Origin: Spizellomyces punctatus DAOM BR117
Taxonomy: Eukaryota
Direction: 5' to 3' (one strand)
NCBI GenBank assembly: GCA_000182565.2
Contig: KQ257456.1
DNA: 64,000 bases
The position numbers and the translations under genes were made by a program. The notes under the pieces were generated by a model, which made no database searches, was not told the origin of the DNA, and was given only the letters and a program-made list of their open reading frames with translations. Below, piece by piece: positions 4,936 through 61,860 of the stretch (position 1 is its first letter; each line of letters starts with the position of its first letter).

Positions 4936-7153
4936 TTAAGCACCCAGCAACGCTCGAACGCCTTGTGCGTAGTCTCCGTTTGCTTCAGCTGTTGTGACTT
5001 CCCAGAGCATAATGCCACCTGAAAAAGGTGCCGGTCAGAATCTTGAAAGCCAAGTGTTTGGAACTTGGCCAACTTACCAAATCGTGATGAAAATTCACTC
5101 TTCCATGTCCCAACAATGTTGGCCAAGCTAGGGGTCGATGCACCAGCCGCTTGGAGCGGAACAAAGCTGATCGGAGAGGCTGATGCTACTGACGCAGGGG
5201 CCCCGATTAGCAGACGGACATTCGGGTTGACCGAAACTGTGTTGGCCCAATTGAACCAAAACTCGACGGCATCGCGCCAAGGACGATTGGGATAAGCGTT
5301 GTTACCACAGCTGTGACGAGATTATCAGATAAAGTCAAAGATGATAAAAGTGAAAGCGCTTCAGAATACTTACGCATTATTGTACCACTGAATATTCAGC
5401 CAGTCAAAGTAGCCTTTGGCATAAGCAGTGTTCTGAAGGACGTCCGGGAAAAAGCATTGGGGTGCCCCTGCAAAGCCATTTTGAGCGACTATGAGCTTGC
5501 TTTTCCCAAGATCCAATACACAACCGACATGACTTACCGCTCATGTAGAATGTTCTTCCACTGGCCCGCATGAGCCTCACAATATCTTGCAAAAAGATAT
5601 CGTAGCCAAAGTCGCTCCCGCCTTCCACATCCAAATCAAGACCGTCCAAAATGACGCCAGCGCCAAAGGGACGGACAAAAGCCGAGTCGGAACCTCCCAG
5701 AAACATGTTCCAGAGCGCCGTAGTGAATCGATTGACATCAGATATATCGGTAAAACCGACCGAAGCAATCCCGCCACCAAGAGAAAGAAACACCTTTTTG
5801 CCTAGAGCTTGGCACCGCCGGATAGCTTGGCCTACCTCTGGGCAGTTCAAAACTGTGCTTCCTGGGAAAGTGGTACCACAATGCCTGGATAAGTTGATAT
5901 CGATTGTGTTTTCGGCGTTTTTGAAAACATTTGCAAAAGCAATGTTGAGAACGTCGTAGGGTCCTGAGCAATAAGCATCAATCTCGCTTTCCGGAGCAGC
6001 GGCGCCAGTAACGACAGGGTTGGAACTGTCATTGTCATTTAATGTTTGAGGAAACGTTTGACAGGAATGACAAAGGACCAACTAGTGACTTACAATGCAA
6101 TGTTCTGTCCCCAGTATCCAACCAATAGTTTCCCTGCCTGAGCTTTGGCAATCAACGGGTCAGTATTGGGTAAGGAAATAGGCACTGGCGTTGATGATGG
6201 CGTTGCCGAGGGACTCGGAGTAGAAGACGGACGCTGAGACGCAGTACTAGGAGATAGAGATGGAGACGCAGACGGCGGAGTAGCACTCGGCGCTCTATTG
6301 GGGCTAGGAGAGGGTACAACCGATGGCACCAATGTTGGACTCGGGGAAGACACAGCCGGTGCATTAGATACTGCACTCGACTGAGATGAGATGGGTACTA
6401 AGGTATGCGGCGCCAGAATTGGGGTGGTTGTGACCGAACCAGAAGGTGACGGCGTAGGACCGGAAATTGTGGTCAAAGATATCGGTGGAGGGCTAATGGT
6501 CTCAACAGAGTCGTTATCCGCATCTTCCTCGTTTGCATACATCTTGAGTAGAAAGCGTGGTGGTTCCATGCCCATCGTATCCTCTGGACTGGGAAACTGG
6601 ACGCAGAATCCAGTCGTCTTACTACTACCCGGCACAATTTCGGCATTCCAGTCTTGTGGGGAGGCAATATACTGTTGGCCGTCATCTGAAAGTTCCTCAT
6701 AGTCTCCGCTCCAGCTGGTGTAGAGATCCGAGTTTGGTGGTAGTGAGATGGCAAGTCGCCAGGTAGCGGATGGAAGGCTTGCGGGATTGATGAGATGTAG
6801 GTGTGCGCAGAATCCGTCGTACCAAATCTTGAGAGTAAAATCCACCCCACCTATCCATGTGCTAGAGACTGTATCGGAAGGATACGTATGAGCTAAACAC
6901 ATTACACCGAGAAATATTGGAAAAGCGGCTACTTACTCTGATCATTGGCGACTTGAAACTGTATGGTCTCTCTGTATACCTTTGATTCCCATCGACTCTG
7001 GTCCTGCTCTTCGTTTTGATTGCAATCATCGTTCTCAGTTGTTGATTCATCCCACGTCCGCCCCGCCAGCGGTGCAGGCGCAGCCAAGGCTACGGCAACA
7101 AAAAACAAAAACACAACCAACGCAAAGTTCAATACTGCCCTTGTCTGGCGCAT
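4936..7153 (-). CDS. Secreted GH18 class III chitinase with N-terminal CBM2-like module and Ser/Pro/Thr linker, multi-exon
   Basis: Signal peptide MRQTRAVLNFALVV; GYWGQN, KVFLSLGG, intact catalytic LDGLDLDVE (DxxDxDxE) and C-terminal GGIMLWE. CBM2-like WYDGF...TW...SWSG...WNAEIVPG...GF at about 6590-6860. Confidence 0.9.
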
Positions 7154-8965: not shown

Positions 8966-11807
8966 ATGAAGGCTTCTATCGTCCACTCTGCTATTGCCAT
9001 ATTGGCTGCATCCGCTACGGTGCAGGCTGCTCCGCGTCAGCGCTCACCCAGAGTTGGGGAGATCATCCCTGGAGCGTTCTTTATTGAATTGAAGGAAGGT
9101 GGGTTATCCATCAAGATTGTCTCTGAGATGCGCCAGTGAGGCACGCGTACTAAATCAAACCTTACTTTCGCAGCTGTTGAAAACAGCTTGCTCCAAGTGC
9201 TGCNNNNNNNNNNNNNNNNNNNNNNNNNNNNNNNNNNNNNNNNNNNNNNNNNNNNNNNNNNNNNNNNNNNNNNNNNNNNNNNNNNNNNNNNNNNNNNNNN
9301 NNNNNNNNNNNNNNNNNNNNNNNNNNNNNNNNNNNNNNNNNNNNNNNNNNNNNNNNNNNNNNNNCAAGGAACGTCCAGAAGTGCTTAGTGTTCGCCCTGT
9401 TCGTGCCATCCCTAGACCAAAGCCCATCATGACTGCTGTTGGCGATCGTACTGTAACCCCTAGCCTCGAATCAGCCCATGGTCTCACTGGTGTTTTGGAC
9501 GTTCACGACAAGCTCAAGATCTATGGTAAAGGCGTCAAGGTCGGTGTGATCGACTCTGGAGTGTACTACAAGCATCCCGCTTTGGGTGGTGGCTTCGGTC
9601 CCGGCTTCAAGGTAGAGAAAGGATGGGATTTCGTCGGGGATGCTTACACCGGTCTCAACGAACCCATTGAGGACGCTGACCCGATTGACGAATGTTCTGA
9701 CGTGTCCCACGGTACCCATGTTGCTGGTATCATTGCCGCCAATGCCACTGGAATGGCCAAGGAATGGGCGCCAGTTACTCCTTTCCTCGGTGTTGCTCCA
9801 CAGGCCACCCTTGGTGCCTACCGTGTCTTTGGTTGCGATGGCTCCGCTGGTGACGATGTGATTGCCAAAGCCATTTACCGTGGCCATGACGATGGTATGG
9901 ACATTTTGAACTTGAGTCTTGGAGGCGGTTCCCCCTACCCAGACAGTCCCGCCGTGTTTGCGGCGGATCGCGTCTCCAGTAAAGGAACATACGTCATTAT
10001 GGCTGCCGGAAACGACGGTGAGGACGGTGTCTTCACCACCGGTCCACCAGCTGTTGCGCCAAAAGGATGGAGTATTGCATCTATTGACAACTCCAAGTTG
10101 GTGCAATTCAGCATTTTTGACGATGCTGGCAAGTCCTACTCTTACGCTCCTTCGTCCGCTGGTGGCGGTTGGGTCGGAAAAGTGAAGGGACAAATTGTCA
10201 TCAACAGTGAGTGTTTCGACAACCTTATACATCTTGAGCTGTACTGATTGCGATTCTTGTCACCAGACCCGAACGCTGACCCTACAACCACTCTTGACGA
10301 TGGTTGTAAACCAGTTACCATTGATGCTAAGGGCAAGGTCATCATCTTCCAACAGGGTTCTGCCTGTGGATCCGCCGTCCGTTGTGGAAATGCCAAGGCT
10401 GCCGGTGCCGCTGGTTGTCTTGTTTACAACAACGTTCCTGGAAGCATCAACATTTTCGGTACTGCCGGCCTCCCTGGAGGTGGTTTGGACGACCAAACCG
10501 GTCTTGCCATCGTCAATGCTGTGAAAGCCCAACCCAACCGAGTGTGGACCTTTACCAACGAGTTGGGTATCTCTGATGTCCCTACCGCTCGCACGCCTTC
10601 CAGCTTCACATCCCTTGGTCTCGATGGAGATTTGAAAATGAAACCCGAGCTCGCTGGTATTGGTGGTAACGTCTACTCTACCGCATCCAAGTTTGCTGGT
10701 GCCAAGGCGGGAATGCCCACTCCTTACCTCTCCATGTCTGGAACATCGATGGCCACACCATACGTCGCCGGTACAGTTGCGCTCTTTGTGCAAGCCCGCG
10801 GTAAATTGGACACCGAGCTGGTGAAGGCTTACTTCCAGAACAACGCCAAGCCCGTTCACGTTAGCAACAAGGGTGATGATGCGACCCGCTTCGCATCTGT
10901 CGCGCAGCAAGGTGCTGGTCTGGTTGATATCTTTGAGACTATCAACACTCGTACCTTGATTCAACCATCGCGCATTGCTTTGAACGACACCCTTCACCAC
11001 AACGGCGTTCAGCGCATTAGCATCACCAACAACTACGACAGCCCTACCACCTACAAGTTGAGCGACTTTGGCGCCGTGGCCCTCACTGGCTCTGAGAAAG
11101 GTTCAGACCGACCCCTTGCTCATCCCGTTCACTCAAACGAAAAGGCCACAATCATGTTTTCCCAAAAGGAAGTCACCATCCCCGCAGGTAAAACTGTGAC
11201 CATCAATGCCGTTGTCATTCCTCCTATTACCCTTTCTGGAGATCTCTGGCCCATCTACTCTGGCTTCATCAACGTTCAGCCTGTCATCGCCTCCAAGAAG
11301 GGCACTACCAACGCTGCACCTCTTACCATCCCATACGTCGGCATGCGAGGTGACTACAGCCGGGCCCCAACTCTTTTGAAGAAGGATCCTAAAAATGGCC
11401 CCACCATCGGTGCATTTTCCGTCAAAAACAACACCCTCGCCCCTCTCGCAAACCCCATCACCATCAACCCAACCCAAAGCCCTGTGGTTATCCGATTGGC
11501 CTTTGCCTACCCAACTCGTGAAGCCTTTGTCGACATTGTTCCCGCGTCACTATTGGCTCCCAAGCCAAAGACTCACCTTGTCACCCTGGGTTCACAAGGC
11601 CGATCCTACGGCACCGCTGACAAGATTGACATCCCATGGAGTGGTGAAAAGACTCTGGACGTGCCTGCCGGTGGCGTTCCTGACAACAGCACAGTCCCTG
11701 CTGGAAAGTACAAGATCCGCATCTCGGCGTTGAAGCACTTTGCTAACCCCAAGCTGCCCTTTGCGTATGATACTTGGGAATCTCCTGTGATCACTGTGAA
11801 GTACTAG
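8966..11807 (+). CDS. Secreted subtilisin-like S8 serine protease with PA domain and C-terminal Fn3-like domain; spans an assembly gap
   Basis: Signal peptide MKASIVHSAIAILAAS; triad VIDSG, HGTHVAG, SGTSMATP; oxyanion AAGNDG; intron at about 10207-10265. Confidence 0.92.
9204..9364. other. Assembly gap (N run) within the protease prodomain region
   Basis: Run of n. Confidence 0.99.
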
Positions 11808-34318: not shown

Positions 34319-37300
34319 ATGCCAGAAGATGGAACAGATACTGCTATTGATGGACATGCATTACCCTCTTCCCCGTCAAGTGCAAGCACCTCCAAAAGCG
34401 GGTCAATGCAGGAACTGATATCGACGCTGATAAGTAGCGAAGTTACTCATGGCGATGCTGTAGACTTCAATGCCCCGCTGAGAGTACGTACAGGTTTTTT
34501 ATGCTGGATCGCTTTGTTTGAATCTTATAACCTTTATTATGCAGGAAGATATCCTGCTCCTCTCTGACATTTTGCTACACATCATCAAAGAACATGCCAG
34601 CATTGCAGGCGGGGCGCCTGACAAGTTGGCTGCAAAGGTCGATGAGCTTCTACACGCATCACGACGATATTTTACGAACCCATCTGATGAAACGTTTACG
34701 GAATTGCTGGCGCATATTCGCGATGTTAAGCATCCAAGTGATTATTTGGAGATTGCACGAGCCTTTCAAGAATTTTTGACTCTGGCGGATATCGCTGAGC
34801 GTCAGCACCGAGTACGCAGGTGGCGAGGTTATCGCAGTGGAAAAAGTTCGCTCTCCTACCGGCAAACCTGCCGTGATGCCTTCAATCTCCTAGCATCACA
34901 AGGTAACTGTAACTGTTCTAGTTACGACGTTGAATGGTTGCTGAGAATGGGATTTGCCAAAAGGATTTACTCCGAAACAGATCCGCGACACACTGCTGAA
35001 ACAGCAAGTTGATCTGGTTCTGACTGCTCATCCAACCCAAGCAGCGCGGCGCACTCTACTAGATAAGTACCTTCATATTGCCAATCTTCTGGCCGTCCGA
35101 GACCGGACTATTATGTACGTCGTGATTTCTATCTGGATCTCGATGTTCCGTACGTTCAGCAGCAAAGAGCTAATATGCCATTTCTGAAAAGGACTCCACA
35201 AGAAGAAGTCGACTTTCGCAACACGTTGGAAGGTGAAATCCTCGCTGCTTGGTAAGACTCGCCGGTATACGTGAACAAACCTTTCAGTAACAGAGTGTCC
35301 GTTTCAAGGCAAACAAACACGGTTCGGAGAATCAAACCAACGCCGGAGGACGAAGCTCGTAACGCTCTCATGGTTATCGAGAACACTATTTGGACATCCT
35401 TGCCAAATTTTATGGGAACCGTCGATCATGCCCTAGCCGAGATTGGACAGCCACCATTGCCAATTGATAGCACACTAATTACATTTGGAAGCTGGATTGG
35501 AGGTAAATATAACAAAATTCCAATCATATTCCGTACTCATTTTTGTAACGATGGGTCTCCCAGGCGACCGCGATGGTAATCCCTTTGTCACATCCGATGT
35601 GACTCGGGACGTCATCAAACTTTGTCGTTGGCGTGCCGCGACTCTCATATATGCTGAAGTGGATAAATTGATGTTTGACCTCAGTATGACTGTGTGCAAC
35701 GACGAGCTGCAGAAGGTTGTAGCGGAAATCCCCGAAGATGTGATCGTTAACTCATCGCGAAAGACAAACCTCACTTTCCCGAGGGGTAATGTCCCTCGCG
35801 ACGAACCATATCGGTTGCTGCTTACAGTCCTACGCGATCGATGCAAGGTGACGGAAGAATATTTGCAGCAAGCAATAGGGGTCCCCAATCCGCCACCACC
35901 TCCACCCGGTTTCATCTCGCATTCGAAGGATTTATTAGAACCCTTGCTACTTTGTCATAGATCGCTTGTAGAATGCGGAGACCATTTGGTGGCGAATGGA
36001 CGATTGCGAAATCTCGCACGACGCATCTCTGCATTTGGGCTGTCCCTTGTTAAGCTCGATATACGACAGGAGTCTGAGCGCCACGCAGAAGCAATGGATG
36101 CTATAACGCAATGGCTCGAGGTCGGATCGTACAATCAATGGTCTGAAGAGCAAAAGCAAGAGTGGTTAATAAAAGGTTCGCGGGGTACTTTGCTCATGTC
36201 ATTTTGAACAACACTATATCTAATAGCTGCTAACATCAGAGCTGCAAAACCGCCGCCCGTTGGTTCCCCATGATTGGCCTGAAAGTTGTACCGGTACAGA
36301 CAACGTTTCGGAAAACGTCAAAGAAGTCGTGGCTACCTTCCGTATGCTGTCCAAAGTCGGAACGGACGCGTTGGGAGCATACGTGATATCTATGGCTCGT
36401 ACGCCGTCTGATATCCTGGCCGTCGCCCTTCTGCAAAAAATTGCAGGTATCCAAGAGCCGATGCGCGTTGCTCCTTTATTTGAGACGAAAGCAGACTTGG
36501 AAAATGCGTCATCCACAATTGATCGGTTATTGTCGGTTGAATATTACCGCAAGTCCATTAATGGAAGGCAGGAGGTGATGTTGGGCTACTCGGATTCCGC
36601 CAAGGATGGGAGTCGGCTTACGTCAGTTTGGGGTCTATACAATGCACAAGAAGAACTTGTACGTACATGCGAAAAGCATGGAGTGCAATTGACGCTGTTC
36701 CACGGAAGGGGCGGGAGCGTTGGAAGAGGAGGAGGTCCGCAGCACTTGGCCATCCTCTCACAGCCGAACGGGACTGTGCAAGGCAGGATGAGAATCACAA
36801 TTCAGGGAGAGATTATTGATCACCATGTACGTTAAACATGCTTTCCAAGCAGCTGAAGCTAGTTGAAAACTAACATGCGCTATAGTTTGGACATACAGGA
36901 ACCGCTGAGCAGACGCTAGAACGATACACTACCGCCACGCTGATCTCGACTTTGGCGCCTCCACACCCACCGAAGCCAGAATGGCGCGCACTGATGTCTC
37001 AAATGTCAAATACATCTTGTGACTTTTATCGGCGAGTTGTCCGGGAGATGCCAGACTTCATTCCTTATTTCCGCTCTGCTACTCCTTTAGCTGAGATAGG
37101 AAGTATGAATATTGGCTCTAGACCTGCCAAACGGCGGGCTACAGGTGGCATTGAAACTTTGCGTGCCATTCCATGGATCTTTGCGTTCACCCAGACGCGA
37201 TCGCACCTTCCTGTGTGGTTGGGAATAGACGAGGCCATCGCGCAAGCTAAAGAAAGCGGCAAGTTGGGATTGCTAAGAGAGATGTATCGCAATTGGCCCT

Positions 37301-37799
37301 TTTTCAAGTCCACGGTGGACCTCATTCAAATGACTTTGGCAAAAGCGGATCCCAGGATATCTGGTACGCACAACGTTTTCTTAACTGATAGCACACCACA
37401 CGATATGACTAAAACTGCCGTATAGCATATTATGACGCGCGGTTGGCTCCTGAGGCTGTGAGACATGTCGGAGCTTACATTCGGGAGAGGCTCGACCAAT
37501 GTATTCGTCTCATTCTCGAGGTTTCTCAATCGAACGATCTTCTAGCCTCGGATCCTGTCGTGCGGCGTGCCGTGGAGTCGCGCCTTCCGTTCACCGACCC
37601 AATCAAGTAGGTAGTTCTGACGTCGCGGTCTAAGTATATCTGGCTAACCTCCTCTGTATTGCTTAGTCTGTTACAGGTTGAAGCTTTGAGTCTTTTGCGT
37701 GAAGCCGAGGAAATTGGAAAGGAGGAAGATCCACAGTTGCGCGATCTGATGTCAGTGACCATTCAAGGTATTGCTATGGGAATGGGTAACACTGGTTGA
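34319..37799 (+). CDS. ppc: Phosphoenolpyruvate carboxylase (bacterial/plant-type PEPC), 10 exons, about 970 aa
   Basis: VLTAHPTQ, GSWIGGDRDGNP, LDIRQES, APLFET, QEVMLGYSDSAKD, FHGRGGSVGRGG, LRAIPW and terminal GMGNTG-stop. Intron donors at about 34484, 34903, 35115, 35252, 35503, 36176, 36827, 37363, 37607. Confidence 0.97.
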
Positions 37800-38003
37800 T
37801 GAAGTTATGAATCTTGTTAAGTTGGATATTTGTTACATATCCTATGATTTGTCAATATTCATTTAAGTTGGAAAAATACATTAAAGAGAGTTCTGTTCAG
37901 CCCTGTGTATGACTCACACAAACGCGCAGACAAATTGACGGCAATCCCACCAAGCATCCGCGCCTTGGTTGAGCTGCAGGCGATTATAAGAGTCTGTTTG
38001 AGG

Positions 38004-41000
38004 ATGGGGGCAACTGAAAGTAAGCTTGCTTTTCGAAAGAGTGTCTTTCAACTTTACGAACAGAAGGTAACGAAATGCCTGATGCGACGCTTGGCTTGCC
38101 CAATGATCTCACCCATTTGACGTACGGTCTTGCGAATTCTTGGCAGAGCATTCCCGAATCAAACGACGACTTTTGGAGCAACTTTTATCGCCTACCAGAA
38201 ACAGCGGAGGATGTTTTCAACCTGTTTGCGCCAAAGGATATACGCAGAGTTCGAGATACAGCCGTCGAAAACCTGGAAACGTTGTTACGAAAGGTGAATC
38301 CACAAGTGCATGCCAAGCGCAACCATGCACCTCTTGTGCTAATGGAAGCTTGACACTTTCGTTCCAACCGACGAAACTTGTAGACGTTAAGTCGCCTTTT
38401 TAGCTTTTTGGCTCTGACCACGCGTCCTACCCCGGACGATGTACGAGATGTCTTGAACTGCATTCGCATTTTGACCCGCCTGTTACCATACGTTTTTGAA
38501 GTTGAGAATGGCGAATTGGAGGGGAAAATCTTCTGGGAGGTGGCAAATGGGGCACAGCCCTTGGGAGCAAAGCTATGTCAAGCAGTCGTGCAACTACTGT
38601 TCTTCAGGGGGTAAGATATCTAGAGAGGGACAATCGTGGTGGCTGCCTGCACTGCTATTTACAGGAGCGCTTGCGTTGTAGATTCACCTTGCCCGAAATT
38701 CCCGACCCTAAAACTGGACGTGGCGTTCAGTACAGCATCTGGTACTCAGGGATACTATTGGATTGTCGCCGGACTCGAAGCTAATGATCTGGCGACTAGG
38801 CAAGAAGGCATTGCAGTGGCAGTCAAACCGCCAGCCGCAACCCGAGACAACATTAATAATCGAACTGAGACAATGCGCCTTTTGCTGACAATTATATCTC
38901 GAACAATCTACTGCCCTGCGGCGAAGGTGCTAAAGTTTGAGAACAGATGGGGCAACGCCATTGTATGCGGCCTGGAAAAAAAGGCGGTTGTGTCGTTGCT
39001 CTGTTCCATGTTGAACACAATAATTAACTACCAACCGGTGGGATGGGTGTCACTGCCATATAATCATGTACGAACCAGAGTAACTTGATCTTCATGCGCC
39101 GCAATGTATCACATACTTACGACATCTTCAGCTGCTCTTTGCGAACATGGAGGAACAACTTGTAACTCTTTGTCTGCAAACATTCGTCGCCTTACTGGAT
39201 ATTCGGCCAGGCGGAACGCAGGCGCAGCCCTCTCAGAGGTACTTGTGGCCCTCTCTCTACTAGCAGTGGATTCGAGGTTCATTTTTTCATAGTCAGGACA
39301 ATAGCCGAAGACCCTCACTTGAGCACAGTCGTCGGTCATCAACCGCGAGTTCCAGCGAAGCACAGTCATTTTCCCCAACGGCAGCCAATAGCAGCGAGTC
39401 TAAGGTATTTTAGATCAACATTTTACGGTTGGGGTCGTTTAATGTCAAGGCCATATGAATTCATCGCCATACGATAGCGCGAAACCATGCGAAATGACTT
39501 CTGCTTTTACACCGGCAAGCTGCATCGGCCGCAAGATTTTTTACTCCTCATGGATGGCTTCTGCCGAGTTCTAAAGAATCCGTTGGACGTAGGTGCATGG
39601 AATGGAAAGGATATTGATGACAAGCGCATCACTCATGTCCCCTGTGCAGGCGGCAAATACATATCTACCTGGATCGATCAAGCGGGTCAACATCCATGTT
39701 GAAGTACTCATGCTCTTCTGGAAGTTGGTGGAGCACAATGAGGTCTGTTGCGTCTCGCTATTCGCTTGCAACACAGCATAGAAGCTCATATATGGGATAT
39801 ACATAGAAATTCGCACACCAAGCAATGGAAACCGACAAAGTTCTCGTTATTCTTGCATCAGTGCTGTACTTCGCGGTAGAGGCACGGAATGATCCAGGTA
39901 TGTACCAGTTTGTCAAAATTGACCTACGATCATAAAGCTGATAGGAACACCTCGTAATGCAGCGCAGATCGGTCTCCTCCGCATGTGCTGCTTCATCTTA
40001 CATATACTGTCCCAGGACCGCAATTTTGCAGTCCAGCTCAACTCCTTATTTGATTACAATACTGTTGGAGCGGCAGCAAAGGCTGTGCCGAACTTTACAT
40101 CGGGAACATGGGCGGATTTCATGTTTTTGGTGAGTTCACTGGCTCTGCCGCGGTCTAGGAGAAGAATATGTGATCTAGTTGCTGATCATTACTGTCATCA
40201 TTGTAGGCCATTCACACAATGGTGACGACGCCCAGTCGTTCGCCTATGGCGGCTCTACACGAACATCTCCTAACGGCGATGACAAACGTATCCCCGTTCG
40301 TGAAAGCGCTCAACGTTACCACCGCTACTAAACTGCTCAGCCTCTTCAACCTGTTCTCAAACCCGGCATTCATGCTTGCAAACGAGCATAATCATAAGAA
40401 CGTTTTTTTTCTGTTGGAAGCGTTTAACAACATTCTCCAGTATCAAGTCACGGGTATTTATTATGTATTCCAAGTTCACGGTCGTCGCACTTCTCATCGA
40501 CTGATCCTGCTTACAATCCTCTTTTTGATCAGGCAACACTCATCTTGTCTACGCAATTGTTCGACACAAGCAAAAGTTCTACGATTTGCATAACCTTACG
40601 TACGAGCACGCTGTTAGCGAGTTGAATCGAGTGCGAGCCATTCGAGCACAAAAACAAAGCGGAGATTCTCAAAAGCAGCCGACAAAATCCGAAAAAAATG
40701 AAGGGGAAGAGGAGGCGCGATCGACGGAGTCGTTGGAGGGTCAATTAGGTAGTAAAGCACCCAGCGCGACCAACGGGGATGGCAGCAACAGTGCAACCGC
40801 ATCAGAGCGTCGCCAGAGTGAGAGTGACTCTACAGGGACAGATACAGAGTTATCAGAAAAAGCAAAGGGCAAACTACCAGCTGAACACTCTTCGGGACCT
40901 GTGGCTGGCGGAAAAGATGGACAGGTTGCGCCTATCAACGATAAGGGCAAGTTTCAACCCAATCAGGAATGGGTAAGTGATTGAACTTGAACGCTGTTGG

Positions 41001-42909: not shown

Positions 42910-43863
42910 CGTGCTGGCGATGCAAGTGCTGCAGATCCACCACCATGCTGTTGACTGGTCGATTGTGGCGCAGGACCAGCATGGTTACGTAACCCAGATC
43001 ATCCTCAGCTTGTGCCCTGGACTCGTTTCTCCTCAGTATTCCCTTTTGCACTCTAGCAAAACATATGTAAATCGCACACTTCGGCTCAAATGATCGGCGT
43101 CCAAAGCAGAGCGCAGTATGAAGCCCGCTGCTAAACTCTGTTGGCTCACAATTGAGTTCAAGCAGCGACTGCCCGAAGGATAAGTTTTCAAGGACGCCAT
43201 AGCCGTCTTGGTTCCTGCCGTGTGCAGAGACGCATTCGGACGCAGTGGGGTGAATTTCACTTTATAGGGTTGATATGCACGATAGATTATTCATTGCTGC
43301 ATCGTCAGCTTTATAAATGAACCACAAGTGGCAGAAATTCAGCAGTAGAATAGATTAGACTTTGCGGTTGCTCGCTGCCTAAAGCTTTGAACAAACACAT
43401 CCCTACTGGTTTTTCAGGTATCGATATATTCATGGTCCGCAGATTGTTACATATGGTCTCCCATTACTCAGTATCGTGAATACCGTTCCAGCGACTAAAA
43501 CATGAATCGCTGACAAAACATACTGAAGAGCAATGTAGAACTATTCATTACAGTGGAAAGGAGAGTCTCGCCCTCAAGGTACAATGCTGAGGTTAGTGAG
43601 AGACTCCAGAAGGGTAGAATCTCAAGGCGACAGTCGATGTTATTACGGACGCGGGTGATTGTCAAACGACATTGTGACTGTCGAGCTGAGTTGAAATACC
43701 AACTGTCTTTTAGTACAAGTCCAGGAGACCTCATCCATGATCGTGCAACTGCAGTCGGCGAACTGAGATTAATGCGAGAGTTCGATACGATTATGTAATC
43801 AAACTTACCCAGCTGGAAGCTCTCAAATCACTGGCATTTTCAATATTGATTTATACATTTGTG

Positions 43864-46181
43864 ATGCCTCCAAAGCGGCTCCCACCTCTACAAGAAAAAC
43901 CCGAGATAGTACTGGGCTCGCGATCGAGCGGTACAGGTTCACCTTATCGCCAAGCTGCGTCGCGAGGGGGAGGTCGTGTGCTGTTAGCAGCTGGAAAAGC
44001 CTTGAAGAAAGGTAGAATAAGAAAGAAAAAGGATGGAGATGATGATGGTGAAAGCGATGCAAGCGGAAATGAAGATGAGAATGACAGTGGGGATAGTGAG
44101 AGCGAAAGTGAGAGCAACGGAAGTGAGGAAGAGGATGCGGTAGAAGACGAAGTTGCAGATGACGAAGACGACGACGATGATGATAATGATGATGACGACG
44201 ACGATGAGGAACATGAGAAAGTAGACAAATCAAAGAAAATAGCAAGCCGAGGAGATGAAGCAGTCCCAGCATCGCTCTCCGATGCNNNNNNNNNNNNNNN
44301 NNNNNNNNNNNNNNNNNNNNNNNNNNNNNNNNNNNNNNNNNNNNNNNNNNNNNNNNNNNNNNNNNNNNNNNNNNNNNNNNNNNNNTTCATTCCCATCGTC
44401 CGACGACGAGGCATCCGATTTCATTGCATCGCTTCATGCCTCCATCAATGCAGCAGCAGCGGCGGCCTTGGAATCTCAACCCCACGATGCTCGAAGGGAA
44501 CACTCCCTTCTTCCTTCAACAGGTGCTCCAAACCCTCCGCGACCCCGTCGACAAAAGGCTGTTCGACGTCCTTCTGCGCGCCGCGAAGCCATTCGACTAT
44601 CACATGCCCCGGTAAAACTAACAGGCTCCCAGTTTGAGCTATTCACCGCCTCAACAGGCGGGGGAATTCGAACTGGCGATCCCTATGCTCGATTTTTAAT
44701 AGGCCCCAGGACCGAGCGATTACAGGTCCCGACAGTCGAGGAAGCAGGACGGTCAAAGACAGATCGGCAAATGGCAGCCAAAGGCTTGATGGTTGGCAAA
44801 GCACCTGCTGGCGGGATAATAGCGCGCTCCTTCCCCGTGAGCAAAAGGAAGCGAAAGCAAATGCAAATGGCTGAGATCAAAGCCGAGCTAGTAAGCAAGT
44901 GGGAGAGGTTGGAGGACTTGAGGTTACAGTAGGTATTTTTCTTGTTTCTACGGATGTGCTGATCGAATGACTGTGGATATTGAAGAGTTGAAAATTCCTT
45001 TGTGTCGCATGAAGAATCATTGCCCGGATGAAGTCTCTCAAGCATTACCACGGAGAACTACAGTCACTGTAAGCGTCACTTGTCCATCTACGCTCTTGTA
45101 GAAGTACTTGTTAATAGATTGCTCTAAACTTTGAAAACCCCAAAAGAAAGGACGAAAATAAGCAGCTAAAGGAAGAGCATCAACGCATCACAGCGGAAAT
45201 GGTTTGTGTATGCAGCCTAATTCGAATATTGCTCTGTGCAATAACAGAATCAATCCTGCTTCCTTTATAGAATACGCGAGTTTCCGAGATATTAGATTCC
45301 AATGATGACCAAAACCGTACTATCCTTCAAGTGCACCGCGAACGAAAACAGCAACGTGCAAAACTCGAACGTGATATGGCCAGGTTCCACGCAGCCGCGG
45401 ACGAACGTATTCAAGGTAATGAATGTTGGGATTGAATTCAATTCCATTTGCTACTTACTAATCTTCCCCTGGTAGAGCTAGAAAAAGTCGTGCGAGAACG
45501 TCAAAGCAGCCTCGAAGAAGCTGAACGGGATTTGGAGGAGCTTGTTGAGTTTGAGGTATGAATGGCATCTAGTGCGCTCTGTCAGCGCTTCGTAGCTAAC
45601 AGGAGAAAATATTTTCAAGAATTTGGTCGACATAGACCCAGATGCAATGTCCAAGCAAATCTCTGCCGTCCAGGCCCGCAGAGATGCCCTTCTTGTTGAG
45701 CATGAGCGCAAGCTAGCGGCATTAAGCGAGCACGCTGAGACCGAGGGAAAAGAATCGGAGCAGCTGTTTGTTGACAAAATAATGGCCATTATTGACCAGG
45801 AGAAGTCGGTATGTCGACCAATGTATCAGTTCCTTCATGCTTTATAGTTAATAACCGGCGTTGCATTAGCAACTGACGTCAACATTTGACGACGTACTGA
45901 AAGTGTCCGTGAAAATTAACAAACGGCTACGACGAGAAATCGCCCTCCAGCAAGAGCACCAACTGAAAATAGAGCTGGAAATCGAAGCTAAAATGGCCGA
46001 ACAGCGACGGGCCTTCGAAATGAAGCGTAAGATGGTGGATACCCGCCGGAAAGTGCTCCAATTGTCCAAATTTATGACTTGCACACCAGATATGGAGTTC
46101 AGCGTCGGTGATGTGTTCACTGAAAGGAATACCTCTAAAGATGACAGAGTAGTTTCTACAGCGCTGGCCGCATCATCTTAG
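43864..46181 (+). CDS. Hypothetical protein with Asp/Glu-rich N-terminal region and C-terminal coiled coil, multi-exon; spans a gap
   Basis: MPPKRLPPL start, long acidic tract, heptad-rich E/K/R/Q exons separated by GT-AG introns; family not recognised. Confidence 0.65.
44286..44385. other. Assembly gap (100 N, probably of unknown size)
   Basis: Run of n. Confidence 0.99.
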
Positions 46182-54796: not shown

Positions 54797-57700
54797 ATGA
54801 ACATCTCGGAGCTGCTCACCTCCGATGCGGGCCCAGCCGACTCGAGTCAGCACCACCACTTCATTTCCAACCCGCACCATAGAGACATCCCGACAGAGAT
54901 CCTGCAGAGTAACTTAGATACTTCTCATACATCTGTCGCGAATGGTGCACGGCAAGAGCAATCCAATTTGGATGACGTTTTGGTAACCCAAGAATCTCGA
55001 CCTTTGAATAATGGTGCTGCTGGGCGGAGATCCTTAAGGGCCAAGTCGGATTCCCCACCGGCTCCCTCTCCGCAAACTGTACGTCCGCTGTCTCCAAAAT
55101 ATGGCTTTCAGATACGGTTTACTATTGCCGACGAAGACACTGGGGGAAACAACTCAACGTTGCCAGATACTAGCCATGCCGAACCTGAAATTCCTGGCTC
55201 CATCCACAAAGGAGAAGTTCACCTTGAACACCGTCAGCCTCCTGCTGCTGCATCCAATCGCGGCAAGTTCCCACATCAGATCCGCAGTGCTTCTCCAAAA
55301 CGCAGGAAATCCACCGATACAAGTCCTATTAAGGTGGAAATGTGTGCGAATTCCGAACTACCCGAGGACGATGTGGATTTGGTGAGCGGTGCCACACAAG
55401 AGGCGGTTAGAGACGGCACAACAACTTTGCGGCGAAATTCAAAGACAATACGACCAAGAAAGAGTGTGAGTTGGGCGTAAAACGTGTTGGACGGTGTTAG
55501 AAATATCTTTTGCTCACATGCAAATGTGCCACTAGATGCACGGGGATGCCTTCAACAAGACCTGCTATTGTGGAGGAAAGACTCGGGAAGAGTACGTTAC
55601 CTACACCCTACGCGAATATACATAGTTTTTTTGAAATATGCGGAATGACATTGCCCTTTGTCATTGTAGAAAGGAAAGACCAATGTTTCAGTGCGGCAAT
55701 TGTGGAAAGTACTTTCACCAGTGTAAGTGATTGTCTAGATATAGTATCAGCGCTATGCGGATGTCCTTGTGCACTGATTCCTTGATACAGCCTGTATCCA
55801 GCTGATTCAACAGTGGAAGCCTGAATTCAAGCCGCTTCTCGGGGATGACTTTTACTTTTACCGCTGTAAGCGATGTTCACATGGGCGAGAAACAATGAAA
55901 CGACTACCGATGACTTGGTATGATATTGGAGTATTTCCATTTTCCAGTTCGTGCGCCTCCTGACTTGCCCTTTTCACAGGGTGGATGTCATTCATGTCAC
56001 TCTATTCCATCTTTCTGCAACCGAACCCCCACGGAAAGTCTCACAGGACAAGCTCAAATATTATGGGTGGAAGACAGATATCTGCGCATTCATTGATAGG
56101 AATTGGAGCAAATTTTGGCTCAAGAGCCGAACAGCGACTTGGGAGAATACGGTCGCTAGTTGCTTGTCGACACAGAAGAGGTTCCTGCCAGGAACCAAAC
56201 ATTTTGGTCATGACCAAGGTTAGTCCCCTTTTCTGGTGTGCGCAAGTTGGTGTTCCGTTTTCTCAATATTCGTGAACAGGACTGTGGGCCTTAGAGTCGA
56301 TGGCGCTACCATCTTCCTATGAGCACTCAAAACGCGGGAGGGAGGCAGAGTACGACATCGGGTTGGATGGGGCATTACAGGAACACGAACGGGTGAAACC
56401 CAAACGGAAGCGATTAGATCTTGAATCGGACACCGACTCTGTAGTTAGCGGCACCACAGTAAGCTTTTGAATGGCAGATTAGGAAGGTTTAGTACCGTGC
56501 TGACAGGGATGCAATGAACTTGACAGAAAGTGAAAAAGTCACGAAATACGGGACGAAGTGTATCTGTGGGAACTCAGGACGGTGCCAACAGGCCACGGCA
56601 GAAGAGGCGGCCCAAAAAGAAGAGAATGGAAGAAGAGTACATTGATCCAGCTACTGCGATTGGTTAGTCCATTGCGCTATCCTGTCGCATCGACCTGTTG
56701 CCTAATTTCTCGCAGAGCTGTATCCCGATGTCGACAACCCACGAGCTCCAGTACAAATGAGCAATGATACGACACATAGAGCCCCACAGATGACAGTAAC
56801 TGATGGAGGATATACTGTCTACACGGATAAAGGTTATCGGATGGCTAAGGCTACTCATGGTGTATGGGAAGGTAGCTGGTACTACGAAGTACTGATTAAC
56901 GAACACCAAGGACATACCAGGTAGGATCTAACGCATAATCATGGAATATGATGGTGAACGATGAGAGTATTGACCTGTGTACGCATGTACCAGAATTGGC
57001 TGGTCCCAGATCAGTGGCGATCTCCAGGCACCATGTGGATATGATCGATTCAGTTATGCGTATCGAGATAATCCTGGAACGCTGTTCCACGTTGCAAAGG
57101 CTATAGCAGATGCACCTGAAGGGTACGCCGCTGGTTACGGTAAGTACTCGGCAAGACTGAATTCGTAGCAGCACATTACCAATTGTTTTACATGTCGCAG
57201 GCCCGGGCGACGTCATTGGCATGTCGATACATCTTCCTCCGTGTGAATCAATGGATGATTTACTTCGAAGGCTTTGGACTCGCGAAAGTCAATACCTACC
57301 ATTCCGAAGCAAGCCTTTGACGGTAGCGGAAGGAAGCGAGATTATCTATTACAAAAACGGGGAGTGTCTTGGCGTTGCCTTTCGGGATCTGTATCGTGGT
57401 AAGTAATGGGTGCACCGTCATGGTGCTGCAAGCTGTATTCTTAACCCATTGGATATGCAGGGAAGTACCATCCTGCTATATCATCGTACAAGGGCGGAAG
57501 TGTTACGTTGAACTTTGGCCCAAACTTTCGATACCCACCACCTCCCGGAGTGAGACCGTTCTGTGAAGCTGATAGCCTACCATTATGGGATACTAGCCAA
57601 GCAGAATTAGATGAAGAGGGACGCGGCGACAGTATTGAACTTGACGTCAAGGGCGAGATGGAGATTGATACTCCAGGCAATCTTTCTAGTTTGGACGGCG

Positions 57701-58476
57701 AGGGGGAGGAAGATGAGGGGCCATTTGCTCCAAATTCTTACGAAGTTGGTGAAGTGGAAAGGAAGGTATTTATTCCGGATTCAAATGGGAATGGGGATGG
57801 ACGCATTGTTACTATGGATGCGGACGAAGTGTCGGGGATCGAAGCCTTGCTAAGTCTTGGGGGAATGTTTGGCGGGACATCCGGAGATTCACCAAAGACT
57901 GCAAATGGATATGATAACTTATCTTCGACGCGAGGAAATGAGGACATGCAACACAGGAGAATGGCAGAGAGCGAAGCCAGGCAACATGATGCGCTGTCCG
58001 TTGATATTGAAGCCAAAGAAGCGGAGGTGGTTGAGTTAATACGACGGAGTTCTGGTGTAGAGGCATCGACTATACCCCCCATTTCTCCATCTTGCAATGG
58101 CAGTGGAGGTGTTGCAATGGAAATTGAAGCAAAGGAAGCAGAGGTAAAGGAAATGATTCGGAGGAGCTCTTTGGGAGAGAATACTATCCAGGCAAAGAAT
58201 GAAGGCTTTGATCCGATGGATGTCAACGTTCAGGACGTTGGCGTGTCCGAATCTATTTCACGCCTGAAGGAGAAAGAGATGGATGGACACGGATCGACCA
58301 GTTTGGTAGTAGAATCAGGGCCTGGCACCCATTCAAACCCTTTGCACGTGGAAGATCCACCAGCGGCCTCCCCTCCGGCACTGGTGACAAAAGCGGATGA
58401 TGACGAGCCTGTAAATAGTAATGATGGCGGGAATGTACATATGAACATTGGAAATGATGAGAATGTGAAAGAATGA
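54797..58476 (+). CDS. ASH2: COMPASS/Set1C subunit Ash2 (PHD-like finger, winged helix, SPRY), multi-exon
   Basis: CYCGG...QCGNC..YFH..C, W.D...V.L, GYRMAKATHGVWEGSWYYEV, RIGWSQISGDLQAPCGYDRFSY, YKNG..LG.AF, NFGPNF. Confidence 0.9.
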
Positions 58477-58616
58477 ATGCTGGCATTGCACGGAGAAGTA
58501 ACTATCAAACGGAGGAATGTTTTCTTTTGAATGGGCAGTGGTCAACCCCTGTGAATTGCGCGCGAACGTTGAGAATGGATACTGCTATGGTTTACAGAGA
58601 TCTGCTTTTTAATACA

Positions 58617-58672
58617 AACGTACTGCAAGGAACGTACTGCAAGGAACGTACTGCAAAAAACCTACTGCAATA
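58617..58672 (+). repeat. Tandem repeat of four 14-bp units (AACGTACTGCAAGG consensus)
   Basis: aacgtactgcaagg x2, aacgtactgcaaaa, aacctactgcaata. Confidence 0.9.
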
Positions 58673-59515
58673 ATGCATAATGCATGGCGTTGGGCACTGT
58701 ATGGCTCTGGTCAATTCCTCCATAGCGTCCACGTGGTCTTGCACAGCCACCATCTGCATTATCGCATGTTGCTAAAAATAGTAAATGCAATATTCCCATA
58801 TGCAGCAAGTAACCATCCAACGATCAAATGTCATTCCGGTTCTTTTCGAATTGTATTACCATTTCCCCATCTGGAGGTGCGTGGGAAAAAGGGGGCAAAG
58901 GGCGAGGAGGTCCCAAAACGACAAGGCTGGGAAAGGAAGGGAGGCGAGAGGCGAGTTTCGACGACGGCCAACGCTTGTTTTTTTCCCTTCAACCAACTTG
59001 GGTTTTTTTGACATTTAGTTTTGAGCCAACTTTTATATTCGACCCTGGCCAAAGGGGAAGGACGGAGAAGGATTAGGCGTTGTATATAGTGCTGTGTTTG
59101 TTGCTCTTGGAGGTTTCAAACGAACCGTGTGACAAAAGCGACAAAGGCATCGTGTCATTCAGGACGAAGGACTAGAGAGATTGTTTAGCAGAGTGCCTTG
59201 GCTATTAACTGCACGAGTAGCCTCGTAGTTTACTTGGTGAGTCCAAGGGCTCCGAAATTGAATTTGTCGTGCGCAAGAGGGTGGCAGACATGGAAGTCTC
59301 ATCGCTTTCACTTGACTCTGAACAGAGGGACACGTCACGAAACTCTAGTGTTTACTTTGTATATCGCCTGCAATTGATTTGAGCGGGTTTAACCCGGTCC
59401 GTCGAAGTTGAATCGCCTTGAAACGTTAACACCAGTCGACGTAGACTAAGGACGACCGTTACTACTTTTCCGTGCCGTATGCGGTTGTCCGCTCCTAGAC
59501 CAAAACTATTCAACG

Positions 59516-61860
<2,345 letters not shown>

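Follow-up and report, generated by a model that had tools for sequence, protein, structure and literature searches.

A stretch of 64,000 nucleotides from contig KQ257456.1 (GenBank assembly GCA_000182565.2) of the chytrid Spizellomyces punctatus DAOM BR117, referred to below as the window, carries a gene for phosphoenolpyruvate carboxylase (PEPC). The gene lies on the plus strand at positions 34319-37799, and the locus is real, intact and intron-rich. We consider it highly probable that its product is a working PEPC (EC 4.1.1.31 type) and that the gene is native to this Spizellomyces-like chytrid, has been inherited vertically within the zoosporic fungi, belongs to a clade of eukaryotic PEPCs and probably is at least as old as the opisthokont ancestor. 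This view is based on a gene model supported by transcripts, on the conservation of catalytic and inhibitor-binding residues and on phylogenetic trees in which the protein groups with those of other zoosporic fungi.

Gene structure, transcription and splicing

Stop-to-stop frames on the plus strand between 34.3 and 37.8 kb carry successive PEPC-like pieces. Introns were placed at GT..AG borders, with the closest database protein, the PEPC of Spizellomyces sp. 'palustris' (P0001), as a guide. The resulting model comprises 10 exons and nine GT-AG introns of 57-77 nt each, with donors of the form GT(A/T)(A/C/G) and acceptors of the form (C/A/T)AG. Its spliced coding sequence of 2919 nt is translated into 972 amino acids with no internal stop. 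In line with the initial annotation, which had placed the hallmark motifs of the enzyme in one frame after removal of nine introns, this frame is open and contains every motif listed there. The window protein and P0001 are of the same length (972 residues) and align without gaps, 946 of the 972 residues being identical (97.3%), so that only species-level substitutions distinguish them.

Transcription was evaluated using four sequencing runs aligned over positions 33800-38400. One run, X7, consists of raw RNA-seq reads and carries the species label of the window; about 6% of the run was used and 547 reads were placed. Contigs of a second run, X2, lack introns 1, 3, 4, 5, 6, 7 and 9, each cut exactly at the modelled borders, indicating that X2 derives from spliced RNA. 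Runs X1 and X3 represent the unspliced genomic form of the locus. Poly(A) tails were found in X7 at position 37878 (6 reads) and at position 37899 (12 reads), and read depth in this strongly 3'-biased library is 79 over 37650-37803 and 57 over 37804-37957. The PEPC gene is transcribed and polyadenylated, and seven of its nine introns are spliced as modelled. The check on splicing that had been proposed together with the initial annotation was therefore successful for these seven introns, in X2 contigs and, for intron 9, in X7 reads as well; the borders of introns 2 and 8 are set by the P0001 alignment.

Exon 1 (34319-34483) contains the start codon and encodes a Ser/Pro-rich N-terminal extension. 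Its start (MPE.GTD) is as in P0001, and a spliced X2 contig runs from position 34309. Intron 1 (34484-34544; 61 nt, GTACGT..CAG) is absent from an X2 contig, with joint 34483>34545. Exon 2 (34545-34902) covers positions 4-113 of the PF00311 profile and is followed by intron 2 (34903-34963; 61 nt, GTAACT..AAG). Exon 3 (34964-35114) encodes the TAHPT motif with the catalytic His (H197), and intron 3 (35115-35191; 77 nt, GTACGT..AAG) is removed in X2 at joint 35114>35192. The short exon 4 (35192-35251; 60 nt) is bridged on both sides by an X2 contig. Intron 4 (35252-35308; 57 nt, GTAAGA..AAG) corresponds to X2 joint 35250>35308 (cut +1), exon 5 (35309-35502) matches profile positions 179-229, and intron 5 (35503-35563; 61 nt, GTAAAT..CAG) is again represented by an X2 joint (cut +2).

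Further downstream, exon 6 (35564-36175; profile positions 249-450, E = 4e-52) encodes DRDGNP and IRQES (R477), and intron 6 (36176-36239; 64 nt, GTTCGC..CAG) has an X2 joint (cut +2). Exon 7 (36240-36826; profile positions 452-650, E = 3e-79) encodes PLFE (E595), GYSDSAKD (D632, K635) and HGRGGSVGRGG (H668, R676). Intron 7 (36827-36885; 59 nt, GTACGT..TAG) is removed at X2 joint 36826>36886. Exon 8 (36886-37363; profile positions 652-813, E = 4.5e-66) contributes LRAIPW and the inhibitor-site Lys K862. It is separated by intron 8 (37364-37425; 62 nt, GTACGC..TAG) from exon 9 (37426-37606), which encodes the inhibitor-site Arg R921. For intron 9 (37607-37666; 60 nt, GTAGGT..TAG), joint 37606>37667 is seen in 15 X7 RNA reads with 10 different starts and in an X2 contig. 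Exon 10 (37667-37799) ends in GMGNTG and the stop codon, and the 3' untranslated region (37800-37899) includes both poly(A) addition sites.

Two further observations were made in the read data. Run X2 is coded as a different organism, yet its spliced PEPC transcripts match the locus almost perfectly over 34309-37317, the listed mismatches being four single bases. This points to a very closely related strain, or else to a sample that was mixed or mislabelled. Shortly before the start of PEPC, at 33800-34107, a small number of RNA reads (depth 0.8-1.5) run in the opposite direction and may represent a neighbouring or antisense transcript.

Family membership and catalytic residues

At the sequence level, profile matches, motifs and structural relatives all place the window protein in the PEPC family (PF00311, EC 4.1.1.31). 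Nine exon pieces, the 60-nt exon 4 being left out, were submitted to a Pfam scan. Eight of the nine match PF00311 (PEPcase) in collinear order from profile position 4 to 919 of 919, and exon 1, which encodes a 55-residue N-terminal extension, has no Pfam match. With single exons reaching E = 3e-79 and 4.5e-66, a chance match to this family is excluded. Likewise, a search of sequences with known structure returned 12 distinct sequences from the PDB, all of them PEPCs. The best relative is Arabidopsis PPC3 (5fdn; E = 1.7e-236), and the E. coli enzyme (1fiy) is matched at E = 2.3e-215.

The TAHPT His, the DIRQES Arg, the PLFE Glu, the GYSDS Asp and Lys, the HGRGGxxGRGG loop, LRAIPW and the C-terminal Gly of PEPCs serve in catalysis or metal binding. 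In the window protein, these motifs are found at positions 195 (TAHPT), 476 (IRQES), 592 (PLFE), 629 (GYSDS), 668 (HGRGG), 669 and 675 (GRGG), 801 (LRAIPW) and 970 (the C-terminal NTG). Conservation was quantified in an alignment with 310 PEPCs of 850-1200 amino acids. At all 78 near-invariant columns (at least 97% conserved among the 310), the window protein has the consensus residue, including H197, R477, E595, D632, K635, H668, R676, R802 and the terminal G972.

Regulatory sites and predicted function

The malate/aspartate feedback site of plant PEPCs is formed by Arg641, Lys829, Arg888 and Asn964 in Flaveria numbering (PMC3586729). Alignment shows that all four residues are kept in the window protein, as R676, K862, R921 and N970. 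By these residues it belongs with the feedback-inhibited PEPCs and, given the conserved site, inhibition by the C4 acids malate and aspartate is likely. Plant-style regulation by phosphorylation would not be expected. The N-terminal phosphorylation motif of plants (acid-base-XX-SIDAQLR) was not found in the window protein by a motif search that does detect SIDAQLR in the plant-type protein P0216.

Compared with the plant-type enzymes of Arabidopsis (PPC3, 5fdn), maize (1jqo) and Flaveria (3zgb/3zge), the window protein aligns over nearly its full length, is not separated from them by the main split of the tree, keeps the malate/aspartate site and has Ala809 at position 774 (Flaveria numbering), as in C3-type enzymes. 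It differs from them at position 884, where plants have Arg or Gly and the window protein has Ala. It also lies outside the plant-type PEPC (PTPC) regulatory class, since it has no SIDAQLR-like motif and ends in GNTG where plant enzymes end in QNTG. E. coli Ppc (1fiy/1jqn) shares with it the family, the catalytic motifs and the lack of the plant phosphorylation motif. However, bacterial sequences mostly end in RNTG or KNTG, the named ones fall outside the eukaryotic clade described below, and the window gene has nine introns. The protein is thus, by its GNTG terminus and its tree position, not of the bacterial-type PEPC class, which includes the bacterial-type PEPC of plants (BTPC). Another PEPC of a non-photosynthetic eukaryote, that of Dictyostelium discoideum, is likewise without the plant N-terminal motif (PMC11832675).

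The GNTG terminus is common to all chytrid, monoblepharid and aphelid sequences with a complete C-terminus in our set. It also occurs in one sequence outside this clade (P0240), and one sequence inside it ends in GYVG (P0014). Its Gly stands next to the inhibitor-binding Asn. It may be a previously undescribed signature of Holomycota, and may alter allosteric control relative to the QNTG and RNTG classes.

We infer the activity, regulation, location and physiological role of this PEPC, and the direction of its gains and losses, here and below. By homology, the enzyme would convert phosphoenolpyruvate (PEP) and bicarbonate to oxaloacetate and phosphate with the help of a divalent metal. It would thereby feed the tricarboxylic acid cycle through an anaplerotic route that requires neither biotin nor ATP, presumably under feedback inhibition by C4 acids through the conserved malate/aspartate site. 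A cytosolic location is probable, because the acidic, Ser/Pro-rich N-terminus, judged by eye, is unlike a mitochondrial presequence. The predicted assembly is a tetramer, the usual form of PEPCs.

Relatives among fungi and other eukaryotes

Relatives were taken from the best 120 matches to the full-length protein and from a search with a single exon. The top named matches are from Spizellomycetales (Spizellomyces, Phlyctochytrium, Powellomyces, Thoreauomyces, Fimicolochytrium, Geranomyces and Gaertneriomyces), followed by Rhizophlyctis, Quaeritorhiza, Polychytrium (two paralogues) and Nowakowskiella. Next come the monoblepharids Gonapodya and Hyaloraphidium, the blastoclad Sorochytrium, the aphelid Amoeboaphelidium and a EukProt sequence with the prefix 'Ihof', which we take to be Ichthyophonus hoferi, an ichthyosporean. 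Below these stand Euglena, cryptophyte, chlorarachniophyte, red-algal and bacterial sequences with 44-50% identity. The other named chytrid and monoblepharid PEPCs (Phlyctochytrium, Powellomyces, Fimicolochytrium, Polychytrium, Rhizophlyctis, Gonapodya and Hyaloraphidium) are 52-78% identical to the window protein, end in GNTG and form one clade with it.

Some of these relatives have features of their own. The Nowakowskiella sp. JEL0407 protein (P0009; 1742 aa) carries the extra domains PF17681 and PF04130, and the Sorochytrium protein (P0019; 1608 aa) the extra domain PF04515; in both, gene prediction seems to have run adjacent genes together, and neither looks like a genuine fusion. The two Polychytrium aggregatum paralogues (P0011 and P0016) are encoded on different contigs and are sisters in the tree (100/100; supports as defined below), which indicates a lineage-specific duplication.

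Phylogeny and descent

For tree construction, sequences were chosen from 355 proteins so as to include all named eukaryotes, nine named bacteria, unnamed matches with scores just under those of named fungi, and representatives at 50% identity with a length of 850 aa or more, leaving out shorter fragments and most near-duplicate bacterial sequences. Three trees were built: one of 106 sequences (LG+G4) with the Shimodaira-Hasegawa-like approximate likelihood ratio test (SH-aLRT); a more careful one of 63 sequences and 926 columns (LG+G4) with ultrafast bootstrap and SH-aLRT, given here in that order; and one of 40 sequences under LG+C20+F+G4 with posterior mean site frequencies (PMSF) and SH-aLRT.

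In the 63-sequence tree, a clade of 45 sequences (100/100) holds every named eukaryote and none of the named bacteria. Its members include a plant-type sequence with SIDAQLR, Galdieria, Euglena, Hemiselmis, the chlorarachniophytes and all fungal sequences. Nested within it is an opisthokont clade of 22 sequences (100/99), which splits into 'Ihof' plus one unnamed sequence ending in GNTG (92/89) and a Holomycota clade of 20 sequences (100/98). The latter is composed of Sorochytrium, Amoeboaphelidium, the monoblepharids (100/100) and the Chytridiomycetes (13 sequences, 100/99), and the window protein pairs with that of S. 'palustris' (100/100). Both the opisthokont and the Holomycota clade are recovered in the 40-sequence PMSF tree (SH-aLRT 99 and 99), where the sequences on the bacterial side are likewise united (99). 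The opisthokont clade has as its sister a mostly unnamed group containing chlorarachniophytes, with moderate support (90/78 in the 63-sequence tree; 87). For one member of this sister group (P0126), a search of protein clusters gave generic, mostly bacterial PEPC clusters.

These trees favour retention, that is old eukaryotic ancestry with losses, over transfer from bacteria. The initial annotation had left the choice between ancient transfer and retention undecided. Retention is the better fit, as zoosporic fungi, an aphelid and 'Ihof' form one clade inside the eukaryotic PEPCs, and a recent bacterial origin is ruled out. The gene would have been inherited vertically within the zoosporic fungi, with an age probably of at least the opisthokont ancestor, and would have been lost from most other fungi and from animals. 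A more specific version of this history has, in our estimation, an even chance of being right. It holds that PEPC was ancestral in opisthokonts, that only lineages with zoospores or of protist grade have kept it (Chytridiomycetes, monoblepharids, one or more blastoclads, an aphelid and an ichthyosporean), that animals and the stem lineage of the non-flagellated fungi lost it independently of each other, and that GNTG marks the Holomycota.

Several points weigh against a functional, vertically inherited PEPC of this age. X2 is a run of unrecorded kind, and its cDNA origin is deduced; X7 depth is at most about 1 across the 5' nine-tenths of the gene; and no junction is listed for introns 2 and 8 in any run, their placement following from the gapless match to P0001. 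At the clamp position 884, an Arg in C3 plants, the window protein has Ala917, which bears on the strength of inhibition. The trees are unrooted, and many of their sequences are representatives with neither a name nor an assigned domain of life. A survey of full-text literature, in which most subscription journals lie outside the coverage, retrieved, in the portions of papers available, no biochemical or genetic work on a fungal PEPC. Finally, the link to Holozoa consists of one EukProt sequence ('Ihof'), and no Dikarya, Mucoromycota or animal sequence is found among the best 120 matches, which limits any claim of absence from Dikarya and zygomycete-grade fungi to these matches.

The last two points would also suit a different history, in which the PEPC is functional and entered the ancestor of the zoosporic fungi by an old eukaryote-to-eukaryote transfer from an algal or protist host or prey. 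The ichthyosporean-like copy would then have been gained separately or be a contaminant, and the window gene would not descend from the opisthokont ancestor. The nearest outgroup, made up of chlorarachniophytes and unnamed protist-like sequences, would agree with this, as would the further neighbours Euglena and a cryptophyte, all of them secondary algae, and the patchy distribution among fungi. However, branching within the clade follows organismal groups, with well-supported Chytridiomycetes and monoblepharids and the blastoclad and aphelid outside them; the GNTG terminus is common to chytrid, monoblepharid and aphelid sequences; and no named alga falls inside the clade or stands as its direct sister with strong support. 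We therefore regard such a transfer, together with the separate origin of the ichthyosporean-like copy that it entails, as unlikely, though worth keeping in mind.

That the window gene is decaying or encodes an inactive enzyme, or that its product has a role other than that of a PEPC, is very improbable. The C-terminal tetrapeptide departs from the QNTG of plants and the R/KNTG of bacteria, and the 55 N-terminal residues lack a family match. Yet the consensus is kept at every near-invariant column, the frame is open and matches the sister-species protein without gaps, and the gene is transcribed and spliced. Conservation of GNTG throughout the fungal clade, moreover, points to constraint rather than decay.

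Genomic context

Downstream of PEPC and on the same strand lies HID1 (38004-40981, the 3' limit being provisional), with its ATG at 38004 (MGATESK...) and Pfam Hid1 matches on three exon pieces. The initial annotation had put HID1 about 200 bp downstream of PEPC, and the distance from the PEPC stop codon to the HID1 ATG measures 204 nt. The best match of a HID1 exon is a Spizellomyces sp. 'palustris' protein (91% identity), followed by Geranomyces and Quaeritorhiza. The contig that encodes this protein is as long (295,542) as the one with the PEPC of that species, and, at 97.3% identity in PEPC and 91% in the HID1 exon, the window is distinct from the 'palustris' record. Across the window, all Pfam matches on long open frames are eukaryotic in character. 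They comprise GH18 with CBM2 (5.4-6.9 kb, minus strand), a subtilase with PA and Fn3-like domains (9.1-11.8 kb, plus strand), an MTPAP-like nucleotidyltransferase (25-26.5 kb, minus strand), a PI3/PI4-kinase (48.4-50.4 kb) and a ubiquitin-WLM protein (50.7-51.9 kb). PEPC has a GC content of 0.50 and of 0.48 at third codon positions (GC3), and the GC3 of its neighbours ranges from 0.44 to 0.57.

PEPC is a native nuclear gene of the chytrid: its introns are spliced out of transcripts, its neighbours are eukaryotic and its orthologues follow the groups of fungi. The statement that it is not a bacterial contaminant, made at the outset from intron style and neighbourhood, is borne out by its spliceosomal introns, their removal in transcripts, the eukaryotic neighbours and the chytrid best match of HID1. 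Bacterial PEPCs are 45-49% identical to it with very high scores, and the enzyme is classically bacterial or plant, but a bacterial contaminant in the assembly or a recent acquisition from a bacterium is scarcely credible for a gene that is polyadenylated and has nine spliceosomal introns, of which seven are missing from transcripts, with eukaryotic genes on its flanks and a base composition like theirs, with all named bacteria outside its 45-sequence clade (100/100) and with orthologues in at least 15 named zoosporic-fungal assemblies. Contamination and recent bacterial transfer were accordingly rejected on introns, transcripts, neighbours, composition and tree position.

Other features of the window

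At 5407-6932 on the minus strand, adjacent frames match the chitinase family GH18 and CBM_2, a carbohydrate-binding module known mainly from bacteria, and possibly form a single gene for a secreted chitinase. The large subtilase is spread over two frames at 9093-11804 on the plus strand. A C-rich tandem repeat at 19586-19740 (period 27/54 nt, 3.7 copies, 95% matches) lies within an open frame on the minus strand (19576-20118) and probably encodes a repeated peptide. An excess of A over T (skew 0.179) was observed at 44001-46000, where overlapping plus-strand frames at 43741-44929 have no Pfam match, and a 27-nt repeat of acidic codons is located at 44159-44216. The region 56000-60000 is purine-rich on the plus strand (GC skew 0.13-0.14, AT skew 0.08-0.09). 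Long plus-strand open frames without a Pfam match occur at 57445-58473 and 59450-60376, and a 14-nt tandem repeat at 58617-58670. A tRNA scan of the window detected no genes.

Prior record and significance

The existence of a chytrid PEPC is already known, and the novelty implied by the initial annotation, which took the enzyme to be generally absent from fungi, is not upheld. One of the refuting conditions given there, prior knowledge of fungal PEPCs, applies as far as the presence of the enzyme is concerned. Yue et al. (2012; PMC3493653) mention the PEPCase of 'the chytrid fungus Spizellomyces'. A 2025 paper on Dictyostelium (PMC11832675) states that PEPC is present in chytrids and includes the PEPCs of Polychytrium aggregatum and Powellomyces hirtus in a neighbour-joining tree. 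In NCBI, the name 'phosphoenolpyruvate carboxylase' is already attached to proteins of Spizellomyces sp. 'palustris', Phlyctochytrium, Powellomyces, Fimicolochytrium, Polychytrium and Hyaloraphidium. No paper linking Spizellomyces with pyruvate carboxylase was found in the full-text literature searched.

To this record, the present analysis adds a transcript-supported intron-exon model, a residue-level check of the catalytic and inhibitor sites, the clade-wide GNTG terminus and trees that join zoosporic fungi, an aphelid and a probable ichthyosporean within the eukaryotic PEPCs. The locus constitutes a clean, transcript-supported counter-example to reviews and textbooks stating that fungi are without PEPC. 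In zoosporic fungi, oxaloacetate can probably be made from PEP by a second route that does not need biotin, which bears on the balance of carbon and nitrogen in early fungi and on the metabolic genes that were lost when the zoosporic lifestyle was left.

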